Positions 1 to 3,000 of a DNA stretch of 64,000 nucleotides are shown here, piece after piece. Positions within the stretch are counted from its first letter, which is position 1. Every line of letters starts with the position of its first letter. Location: NCBI RefSeq assembly GCF_013167455.1, contig NZ_CP038328.1; one strand, given 5' to 3'. Position numbers: made by a program. The DNA comes from Escherichia coli O157:H7. GTDB taxonomy: Bacteria; Pseudomonadota; Gammaproteobacteria; Enterobacterales; Enterobacteriaceae.

Positions 1-3000
1 TCGTCAGCCGATCAACGACCCGCGTAAAGATTAAACTCCCTATGCCCGATAACATTTTGCTTATCGGGCATTTTTATGGCGATTAAAACGTTTCCCAGTT
101 CTCCCCGCTATCTGCCACTGCCATTTTACGCGGCGTAGCTGGCGTCACGGTTTTTACCACAGCCGATGTTTCACGCTGCTGTTGCTGCTGTTGCTGAATC
201 CGGAACACTGCCACAGCTTCGGTCAGGCGACTGGCCTGCTCTTCCAACGCGGCGGCGGCAGCGGCAGACTCTTCCACCAGCGCAGCGTTCTGTTGAGTTA
301 CCCGGTCCATCTCAGCAACCGCTAAGCCAACCTGATCGATACCACGGCTCTGCTCATCAGAAGCAGAAGCTATTTCGCCCATAATGTCCGTCACGCGGGT
401 CACAGCACTGACAATCTCCGCCATTGTTTCCCCGGCGCTTTCGACCAGCGTAGAGCCAACATCCACTTTCCCCACCGAGTCTTCAATCAGGCTTTTAATT
501 TCACGAGCCGCCTGGGCGCTACGCTGGGCCAGATTACGCACTTCTCCCGCAACCACCGCAAAACCACGTCCTTGCTCACCCGCACGCGCTGCTTCAACCG
601 CCGCGTTCAAAGCCAGAATATTGGTCTGGAAGGCAATGCCGTCAATTACGCTGATAATATCGGCGATTTTCTGCGAACTGGTGGAGATATCACGCATAGT
701 CTGCACCACGTTATCTACCACTTTGCCGCCGCGTTGCGCCGTTTCAGAAGCACTTAACGCCAGGTGGCTGGCCTGGCGCGCATTCTCGGCGTTCTGTTTC
801 ACCGTTGCGGTGAGTTGCTCCATGCTGGCTGCCGTCTCTTCCAGCGAAGCGGCCTGTTGCTCGGTGCGCGAAGAGAGATCGTTATTGCCGGTAGCGATTT
901 CGCTGGCACCGCTATAGATGGCATTGGCCCCGTTGCGCACATCACCGACGGTACGCATCAGCTCTCCCTGCATATGGCGCAAACTCTCTGCCAGTTGCCC
1001 CATCTCATTAGAGCCATCCACCTCAATCGGTTTCACCAGATCGCCGCCTGCAATATGACGAATGCTGTCAATCAGGCGATTCATTGGCGCTACCAGCGAG
1101 GCTTTAATACCGAACCAGACGGCGAAGATGACCGCCAGTACGACGATCATCACGCCCACCAGAATCCACATCGCCTGGCTGTAGGAGGCATTGTTATCGC
1201 TGACGGCGATATCATAGAGCCGATCGTTTTGCTCCATGTAAGCCACATACTGCTTCTCGAAACCGTCCTGATATCCCTGGGTCGGCTGATCAAAGAACTC
1301 GTTGATTTTGCCTGCACCTAACAGTTGGATCAGCTCCGCCAGCGCATTGTGATAAATATCGTAATTACGTTTGATCTCTGCCGCTGCGGCGGTGCTCTGA
1401 CGCGGGTCACGCGGCAACGCTTCGTAATCTGCCCAGTTTTTTTCCGCCTGTTTCAACGAAATACTGGCACTCTGCATCAGCTCAGCAACGGTTGAACCGC
1501 TACCAATATTATTCTGATCCATCATGTAGCGGATACCCGCGCGGTTGAGGGTGTTACGCGTCTGCAACAACGCGACCCAGCTGCCATTCAGCGTGGATTG
1601 CTGCTGGCGAATGGTTTGTAAAACAGTGAAATTTTCTTTGTCATTCTTTAAGGCATTAAAGAACAGACCGCCTGATGTCAGTTGTAAAAGGCCAAAAACG
1701 GCCAAAACCAGCAGTAAGCTGGTCACGATCTTGATACGTTTTAACATGGTTTCTCTTTCCTGTGGACCGATGCAAAATTTTCGGCCTGAAATGAGAAAAC
1801 TTTATAGGTAGCGACTTGAAACTGGTTAATTTTACCTCACTTTTTTTAATTTTTGTTCAAAAATACAATAACCACTTATTGATACATTTTCTTTTCTTAT
1901 TTTTTTCACACGAATTGTATCTATTTTGAACGAAATATTTTATAGAGTGTGGAATTTTAAGAAAGGACATCTGAAATGTTAAACCGTGACTTCGATCATC
2001 TCTCAACGCTATTACATCTCTTTTTTGAACGTGAGGATATTTGCCAAAAGCTTAATATTATTGACCAAAACAATATCACCGGTTGGGAAGTGTGGTTCCA
2101 GGTAGAGTTTGCTAATATGCTCTGCTCAACAGACCATGAATGGTGGCGTGAACAAGCACTTTCCTGTGATATGCGCAAAAAACCTGAGCGCCCGACACTA
2201 CGCACAGATTTCTTACTACGTAAAAAAGGCTGGGCACAAGATAGCTATATCGCGCTTGAAATAAAACAAAACAGAGACGCGACCAGTTGTGTTAAAAATA
2301 TGATCGCAGACTTAGAAAAAAGCGCAAAAATAAAACGTTCCGAACTCGATTTACGCAGTTTCTGGACCTTGGGTATCACCCCTATGATAGACAGGGAAAG
2401 GCTGGACTCTCTCATCGATTGCTATTTAGATGAGAAATTTTATCTTACTAAATCTCGTAAAAAACACGTTTTACTTAAAGAAATAAATAACACACCATAT
2501 TGCTATATTGTTATTTAATATTTATAGTATGAATATAATTTTTAAATGAGTTACACAACCGAGGGCTAAAAATCGCTTCGGTTGTGATCATCATCACATA
2601 AATAACCTTCATAAACCTTGCTCAAAACCGCTCAACCGCAAAACTGACCGCTTACGTCCCTAAAATAACCACTCAGTTATTTACCTTACTTTACGCGCGC
2701 GTAACTCTGGCAGCATCATTGCAGGATAGCGGTCAATTTACCTCCTCAAACGCAACGCAAACCTAGAACGGCTTCGGCCAACTATTAATCAATACATGCC
2801 AGGTTTTACTATGGATACGAAAAAACTATTCAAGCACATACCCTGGGTGATTCTCGGAATCATCGGTGCATTCTGCCTCGCGGTAGTTGCATTACGTCGG
2901 GGGGAGCACGTCAGCGCCCTGTGGATCGTGGTCGCCTCTGTGTCGGTGTATCTGGTGGCGTATCGCTACTACAGTCTGTACATCGCCCAGAAGGTGATGA

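Follow-up and report, generated by a model that had tools for sequence, protein, structure and literature searches.

The serine chemoreceptor Tsr of Escherichia coli K-12 (551 aa; WP_000919536.1; the chain of PDB 6S1K) ends in the pentapeptide NWETF, which a tether joins to the receptor body. According to the Parkinson laboratory, conservation in the kinase-control domain ends with residue 517, and a 34-residue non-conserved C-terminus follows (PMC4692393); a 2023 study set the tether point at R516 and counted 30 flexible residues beginning with I517, printing the K-12 sequence as IQQQQRETS... (PMC10561060). The pentapeptide tethers of Tar and other methyl-accepting chemotaxis proteins (MCPs) are built alike, with a non-conserved segment of low confidence preceding the CheR/CheB-binding pentapeptide (PMC7390727; bioRxiv 10.1101/2024.03.07.583918). 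In Tar, tethers of 22–46 residues can still be assayed by dose and step response, and the fitted peak of the CheR concentration shifts by 0.128 ± 0.048 nm per residue (PMC10561060). Both Tsr with its NWETF tether and the variability of tether sequence are already known, and forms with four and seven glutamines (4Q and 7Q) are both present in RefSeq and the PDB: 6S1K is the K-12 4Q form, and 3ZX6 has a 7Q C-terminus identical to that of the sequence analyzed here.

Our analysis of a 64-kb stretch of E. coli O157:H7 DNA (64,000 nucleotides, hereafter the window) reveals a Tsr that shares gene, locus, domains, methylation-site residues, and NWETF with K-12 Tsr, and that differs from it by one extra 9-bp unit (seven versus four glutamines, and a tether of 33 versus 30 residues) and by two residues of the linker, an A-to-T change in PATPRK and an E-to-G change in DSGENWETF. 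The features of the locus, in window coordinates, are as follows.

Positions 42..71, no strand assigned: hairpin with T/A runs on both flanks, between the convergent lgoT and tsr 3′ ends (from a scan for terminator-like elements).
Positions 83..1747, minus strand: tsr coding sequence, serine chemoreceptor (methyl-accepting chemotaxis protein I), 554 aa plus stop (from the list of open reading frames).
Positions 86..100, minus strand: codons of the NWETF pentapeptide, residues 550–554, the CheR/CheB docking site (from the translation; function from PMC7390727 and PMC4692393).
Positions 101..199, minus strand: C-terminal tether, I517–E549, 33 residues in this allele, from the receptor body to the pentapeptide.
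Positions 176..196, minus strand: glutamine run Q518–Q524, a 9-bp tandem repeat in frame, with the coding strand reading (CAGCAACAG)x2 + CAG.
Positions 1778..1804, minus strand: sigma-28 (FliA)-type promoter match, TAAAGTTT-N11-GCCGAAAA, 5′ of tsr.

By all sequence criteria tested, the open reading frame at 83..1747 is Tsr. In particular, the protein has the Pfam domains TarH (residues 1–176), HAMP (217–263), and MCPsignal (327–484), all exceeding the curated cut-offs; it is 99% identical to K-12 Tsr; and its translation contains all of the methylation/deamidation sites (Q297, E304, Q311, E493, and E502). The gene is 100% identical, where its 3′ end was compared, to the annotated tsr of O157:H7 and related strains, and it has lgoT and btsT as neighbors, matching MG1655, with one additional hypothetical gene. 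By orthology, the encoded receptor should sense serine and bind CheR and CheB. The promoter-like sequence at 1778..1804 is the only match to TAAAGTTT-N11-GCCGAAAA in the 64-kb window, with 0 expected from shuffles; by its resemblance to the sigma-28 consensus, it is a putative FliA promoter. The hairpin at 42..71 comprises an 11-bp stem followed by TTTTAT, lies next to the tsr stop codon (positions 83–85), and is likely to act as a bidirectional terminator. An antisense open reading frame that overlaps the repeat (166..384, plus strand) has no support and was taken to be a by-product of the GC-rich coding strand.

A sequence-only reading of the same DNA had noted a run of seven glutamines in Tsr near positions 150–200, encoded by alternating CAG and CAA codons. 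The seven codons are indeed present, at 176..196, and the alternation is approximate: their coding-strand sequence is CAG CAA CAG CAG CAA CAG CAG, which is not a strict alternation of codons and is instead two copies of the 9-bp unit CAGCAACAG followed by CAG. Tandem Repeats Finder identifies a perfect period-9 array (2.4 copies, 100% matches) in the window. Perfect short-period arrays of 21 nt or more number just two in the whole 64 kb, this one included, and no long open frame of the window encodes a homopolymer run of five or more residues apart from the A6 and Q7 runs, both in Tsr. Of 5,000 codon shuffles of tsr, one yielded a perfect period-9 array of 21 nt or more, and of 20,000 amino-acid shuffles of Tsr none yielded a Q7 (1.6% yielded a Q4), so that the glutamine run exceeds chance expectation. 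Single-stranded DNA of the repeat does not fold into hairpins better than shuffled sequence on either strand (z = −0.36 and 0.15). Hairpin-driven instability was accordingly dropped as a candidate mechanism, and plain misalignment of direct repeats, which suffices, may be inferred in its place: two overlapping copies of the 12-nt string CAGCAACAGCAG, at offsets 0 and 9, are present in the 7Q allele.

The glutamine run occupies the very base of the tether. F515 is invariant in an alignment of 132 diverse MCPs, and the tails are unrelated from residue 516/517 on; 94 of the 132 end in an xZxxZ pentapeptide, with linkers of 29–106 residues (median 53), a natural range within which the tether of the window Tsr falls. 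The segment thus separates the last conserved residue of the signaling domain from the pentapeptide and, as expected of a tether, shows no conservation of sequence. Within 21 E. coli alleles, 9 of about 26 codons after the glutamine run are variable in amino acid, versus 13 of 517 in the body (Fisher p = 1e-7). The linker of Tar, and of Tar only, is reportedly known to be disordered from direct evidence (Bartelli and Hazelbauer, 2011, as cited in PMC7390727). The placement of the run in the tether, as proposed from the sequence, agrees with PMC4692393, PMC10561060, the MCP alignment, and our AlphaFold2 (AF2) model; that proposal can be sharpened in that the run is the first segment of the tether, where, judging by the model, it may have some transient helicity. 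Unlike those of other MCPs, the Escherichia Tsr tether opens with a glutamine-rich tract that comes from a perfect DNA repeat, and none of 129 non-Escherichia MCP representatives has a glutamine run longer than three in its tail.

The sequence-only reading had further set the 554 aa of this Tsr against 551 aa for K-12 and taken repeat-length polymorphism as the cause; both points hold. The tsr of MG1655 (1,656 nt, 551 aa, IQQQQRE) reads CAG CAA CAG CAG, one 9-bp unit less than in the window, so that K-12 Tsr is the same as the window Tsr neither in length nor in glutamine run, and the difference in length is due wholly to the run. With a 338-nt query, tsr was recovered from 5,385 of the 5,426 complete E. 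coli genomes, with match spans of 338, 329, or 347 nt and a diverged form of 335 nt. Alleles were counted in 5,382 genomes, a collection skewed to clinical and laboratory strains, with allele-specific queries carrying 60 nt of flank on each side; matches of at least 95% identity were counted, and at this query length a 9-nt gap keeps the other alleles below 95%. The counts were as follows.

7Q (554 aa): 4,056 genomes, 75% (the identity bands do not separate 7Q from hypothetical rare 6Q or 8Q alleles).
4Q (551 aa): 1,214 genomes, about 23%, K-12 and BL21 among them.
10Q (557 aa): 72 genomes at an identity of at least 95%, or about 104–106 by balance (from closing the sums of the 7Q query and the 90–95% band of the 13Q query); 1.3–2%.
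13Q (560 aa): 3 genomes, 0.06%.

For the 13Q query and a 1Q query, gaps of at least 27 nt split the alignment and the identity bands are not allele-specific; listed spans and strict E-values were used instead. On this basis, the 1Q construct, the probe for 1Q/2Q alleles, gave no full-length match at E ≤ 1e-24, where a real 1Q allele would score about 1e-55; and, with the 13Q query, no allele beyond 13Q ranked above the 10Q alleles. No span off the 9-bp series appeared in about 220 listed rows or in 21 fully read tsr genes. Codon by codon, the alleles of these 21 strains share an identical unit, (CAGCAACAG)n + CAG, with n = 1, 2, 3, or 4, and all 21 are in frame, full length, and end in NWETF, a pentapeptide that is unchanged in every allele examined. 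Among named strains, K-12 and BL21 are 4Q, O157:H7 and Nissle 1917 are 7Q, and HS and O104:H21 are 10Q. The length therefore changes by 9 bp (three glutamines) and not by single codons, a refinement of the polymorphism first supposed. With a unit repeated head to tail and a copy number that depends on the strain, the array has the properties of a coding VNTR. Separately, odd lengths among E. coli Tsr proteins of about 99% identity come from other indels.

Copy number has changed repeatedly. Among genomes with the window's own flank haplotype (at least 99% identity), 563 carry 7Q, seven carry 4Q, and one carries 10Q. In a neighbor-joining tree built from these 21 tsr genes after the repeat had been cut out (93 variable sites), Fitch parsimony gives 10 copy-number changes versus a minimum of three, with 7Q at the root; the tree is of a single gene, its strains were partly picked for apparent discordance, and some apparent recurrences could be short-tract recombination, so that the 10 changes are illustrative and not a rate. 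Close pairs differ in copy number: FDAARGOS_1299 (4Q) and 98222 (7Q) are separated by 2 SNPs in 1,653 nt, O104:H21 (10Q) and 2EC1 (7Q) by 2 SNPs in tsr, and SC434 (10Q) and Z1323HEC0355 (13Q) by 5 SNPs in tsr. These observations point to recurrent slippage as the cause of copy-number change. The commonest E. coli state, 7Q, is probably also the ancestral one, and the minority 4Q form of K-12 probably a derived one.

In the divergent tsr genes sampled, the repeat at this site is imperfect. Three records labeled E. coli have a tsr that is 12% diverged and a protein that matches Escherichia marmotae; querying with the divergent N50 allele recovered E. marmotae together with another divergent Tsr group, 94–95% identical to E. 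marmotae Tsr. The E. marmotae protein (553 aa) resembles the window Tsr in being an orthologue of 92% identity with a glutamine-rich seven-codon site (IQQEQQRQRE) and an NWETF end, and differs in that its tract is broken by Glu and Arg and the sampled sequences lack length variation there. Specifically, in both groups the seven codons are CAG CAA GAG CAA CAA CGT CAG (QQEQQRQ), an imperfect repeat, and none of the sampled length variants of E. marmotae or the second group differs in the length of this tract: the 550-aa and 556-aa variants of E. marmotae reflect a change in an Ala run of methylation helix 2, and the one 550-aa variant of the second group lacks three residues (AVV) of the kinase-control region. 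Length varies with the perfect repeat and not with the interrupted one, which suggests a mutational rather than a selective cause.

We therefore favor, at a probability of roughly 80%, an in-frame 9-bp length polymorphism that arises by recurrent slippage and has a nearly neutral effect on tether length. Misalignment of the overlapping 12-nt direct repeats during replication would lead to gain or loss of whole 9-bp units, with Tsr of 4, 7, 10, or 13 glutamines (551, 554, 557, or 560 aa) as the expected products. With a unit length divisible by three, frame and NWETF are always kept, and the repeat is not an on/off switch. In the 4Q allele, just 3 bp of repeat homology are left, and its re-expansion should be harder, which would fit a derived, fairly frequent end state. 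At the protein level, the sole change would be in the tether carrying CheR and CheB, of 30, 33, 36, or 39 residues from I517 according to allele. If the slope of 0.128 nm per residue applies, each repeat unit would correspond to about 0.4 nm, versus a methylation-site spacing of about 1.05 nm; and, since glutamine is uncharged, the reported linker charge pattern (bioRxiv 10.1101/2024.03.07.583918) would be unaltered. By analogy with the Tar experiments, and given the variability of the linker, on both of which near-neutrality rests, the polymorphism should be near-neutral, its effect on CheR/CheB reach and adaptation kinetics being subtle at most.

Other accounts of the repeat and of its variation fare less well. 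That the run is a chance succession of codons or an assembly artefact is already refuted: the shuffles make chance unlikely, the same alleles occur in thousands of independently finished genomes and in cloned PDB constructs, and every variant is in frame. Another account holds that a few ancient alleles have been shuffled among lineages by homologous recombination, with little or no de novo slippage. E. coli does recombine, and the genes flanking tsr vary among strains (lgoT or a TRAP transporter; btsT, hpaR, or a hypothetical gene), which marks the region as mosaic; but pairs that differ in copy number are only 2–5 SNPs apart over the 1.65-kb gene and would call for a tiny tract, and the rare 13Q allele adjoins a 10Q allele, as stepwise change predicts. 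We regard recombination as a very unlikely main source of the series.

The remaining alternatives concern the consequences of repeat length. The glutamine run could continue or cap the C-terminal helix of the receptor bundle, each unit adding about 0.45 nm of rigid stalk and rotating the point at which the chain exits. The crystal construct 1QU7 reaches about Q520, and an AF2 model from a shallow alignment of nine sequences has an unbroken helix to 528; that model is of low confidence (mean pLDDT 42.5), was unusable, and was replaced by one from 132 sequences (mean pLDDT 84.8). The better model still draws a short helix at 519–529, at a pLDDT of about 60, but it ends the bundle helix at 512, followed by a break; pLDDT over the glutamine run is about 60–80, confidence falls from about residue 521 on, and values are 60 at 521–530, 50 at 531–540, and less than 50 beyond. 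Moreover, MCP conservation stops at 515–517 (alignment; PMC4692393), the array model 8C5V goes no further than 516, and I517 onward is treated as a flexible chain in PMC10561060; extension of the helix is thus unlikely. Alternatively, copy number could be under selection, since tether length would set the CheR/CheB peak along the methylation helices, and lineages or niches would then favor different kinetics of adaptation to serine. In agreement with such selection, the CheR distribution in Tar shifts linearly with tether length, and linker length has been argued to match methylation-site distances (PMC10561060); the 4Q-to-13Q span (nine residues, about 1.15 nm by the Tar slope) is about one methylation-site spacing; and several alleles coexist, with the derived 4Q at about 23%. 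However, the linker outside the run varies freely in sequence, homologues have linkers of 29–106 residues, the absence of variation at the imperfect repeat is more readily explained by mutation than by selection, and the high share of 4Q may be inflated by clonal over-sampling among K-12, B, and strains related to them. Selection on copy number is on balance quite improbable. Its strongest form, in which the 9-bp repeat is a heritable tuning knob whose steps of 30, 33, 36, and 39 residues move the CheR/CheB peak over the methylation sites, is speculative and very doubtful; were it true, lineages would differ in the speed or precision of serine adaptation, and the reference receptor of the field (K-12, 4Q) would stand at the extreme short end of the natural range.

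For recurrent, nearly neutral slippage, the overall importance is modest. In literature coverage that was incomplete, no paper on polymorphism of the Tsr glutamine run, or on experiments with its alleles, was found. What is added here is a clean 9-bp copy-number series (4, 7, 10, and 13 glutamines) that has changed repeatedly. The K-12/B receptor, on which nearly all quantitative chemotaxis work has been done, is a minority form with the shortest tether (about 23%), and the 33-residue 7Q tether is the typical one (about 75%); the natural allele series could test models that use tether length as a parameter (e.g. PMC10561060).

Compared with bacterial coding VNTRs and contingency loci, the tsr repeat is similar in its short tandem unit, its strain-variable copy number, and its recurrent change. 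It differs from contingency loci in having a unit length divisible by three and a very short array (1.3–4.3 copies), and in being unable to switch the gene off. Phase variation was not found at the repeat, with 21 of the 21 alleles read being full length and in frame, and hypermutability is unlikely. The tsr repeat is a small coding VNTR and not a phase-variable contingency locus; nothing in it falls outside known kinds, and it is an ordinary length polymorphism.

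The gene content surrounding tsr depends on the strain. On the 3′ side of tsr, the neighbouring gene is either lgoT, encoding an MFS transporter, or the gene for a TRAP transporter large permease (comparison of tsr loci L003, L007, L008, L010–L012, L014, L017–L019, and L021 with loci L001, L002, and L004–L006), while the other side is occupied, according to strain, by btsT, hpaR, or a hypothetical gene. Because gene content varies among strains on both sides of tsr, the neighbourhood is a mosaic. The following features adjoin tsr in the window:

42..71, hairpin common to lgoT and tsr, where their 3′ ends converge
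1778..1804, minus strand, candidate sigma-28-type promoter, TAAAGTTT-N11-GCCGAAAA, a pattern match upstream of tsr
1976..2518, plus strand, hypothetical ORF of 180 aa in the AT-rich spacer separating tsr and btsT

In O157:H7 the annotation lists the 180-aa ORF as a hypothetical gene; K-12 lacks it, and its position is occupied in other strains by hpaR. The ORF has no Pfam match and has a weak PADLOC match to "orphan methyltransferase" (E = 9e-4). The hairpin looks like a bidirectional terminator, judging from its sequence and placement, and the match at 1778..1804 is presumed to be of sigma-28 type on the basis of the consensus.

Farther from tsr, the window contains one sRNA, with no other Rfam family matched in the window, and three tandem repeats, which could be strain-typing VNTRs or encode repeat proteins:

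14051..14127, minus strand, SymR antitoxin sRNA (Rfam RF01809, 94 bits)
18867..18923, perfect tandem repeat, 2.3 copies of a 25-nt unit
25644..25675, perfect tandem repeat, 5.3 copies of TAAAGA
27153..27306, tandem repeat, 5.9 copies of a 24-nt unit, ~80% matches

A search of 5,426 complete genomes with the tsr 3′ query yielded no tsr match whatsoever in ~41. In E. coli 2013C-3492 (NZ_CP027445.1; genome match H220), the tsr 3′ query aligns at two places; the presence of two separate matches, the better of which covers only 68% of the query, suggests that tsr is interrupted or rearranged in this strain. Two rare E. coli Tsr variants contain internal duplications (P0014 and P0078 in the homologue searches): one, of 570 aa, has a 16-residue duplication in HAMP, and the other, of 568 aa, has a 14-residue duplication in helix 1, across methylation sites. 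Each is represented by a single sequence, and they may be mutants or errors.

Tsr also contains a second short in-frame repeat, a run of six alanines in methylation helix 2 (A495–A500; window 248..265, minus strand), encoded by GCC and GCT codons and flanked by methylation sites E493 and E502. The run is present at full span in 39 of 39 full-length E. coli sequences from a spread sample, and appeared length-stable in E. coli Tsr. In Escherichia marmotae Tsr, the run comprises 3, 6, or 9 alanines, yielding proteins of 550, 553, or 556 aa, respectively (P0121, P0146, and P0167–P0169). A 3-residue step within methylation helix 2 should put the final ~15 residues of the body into a different helix register.
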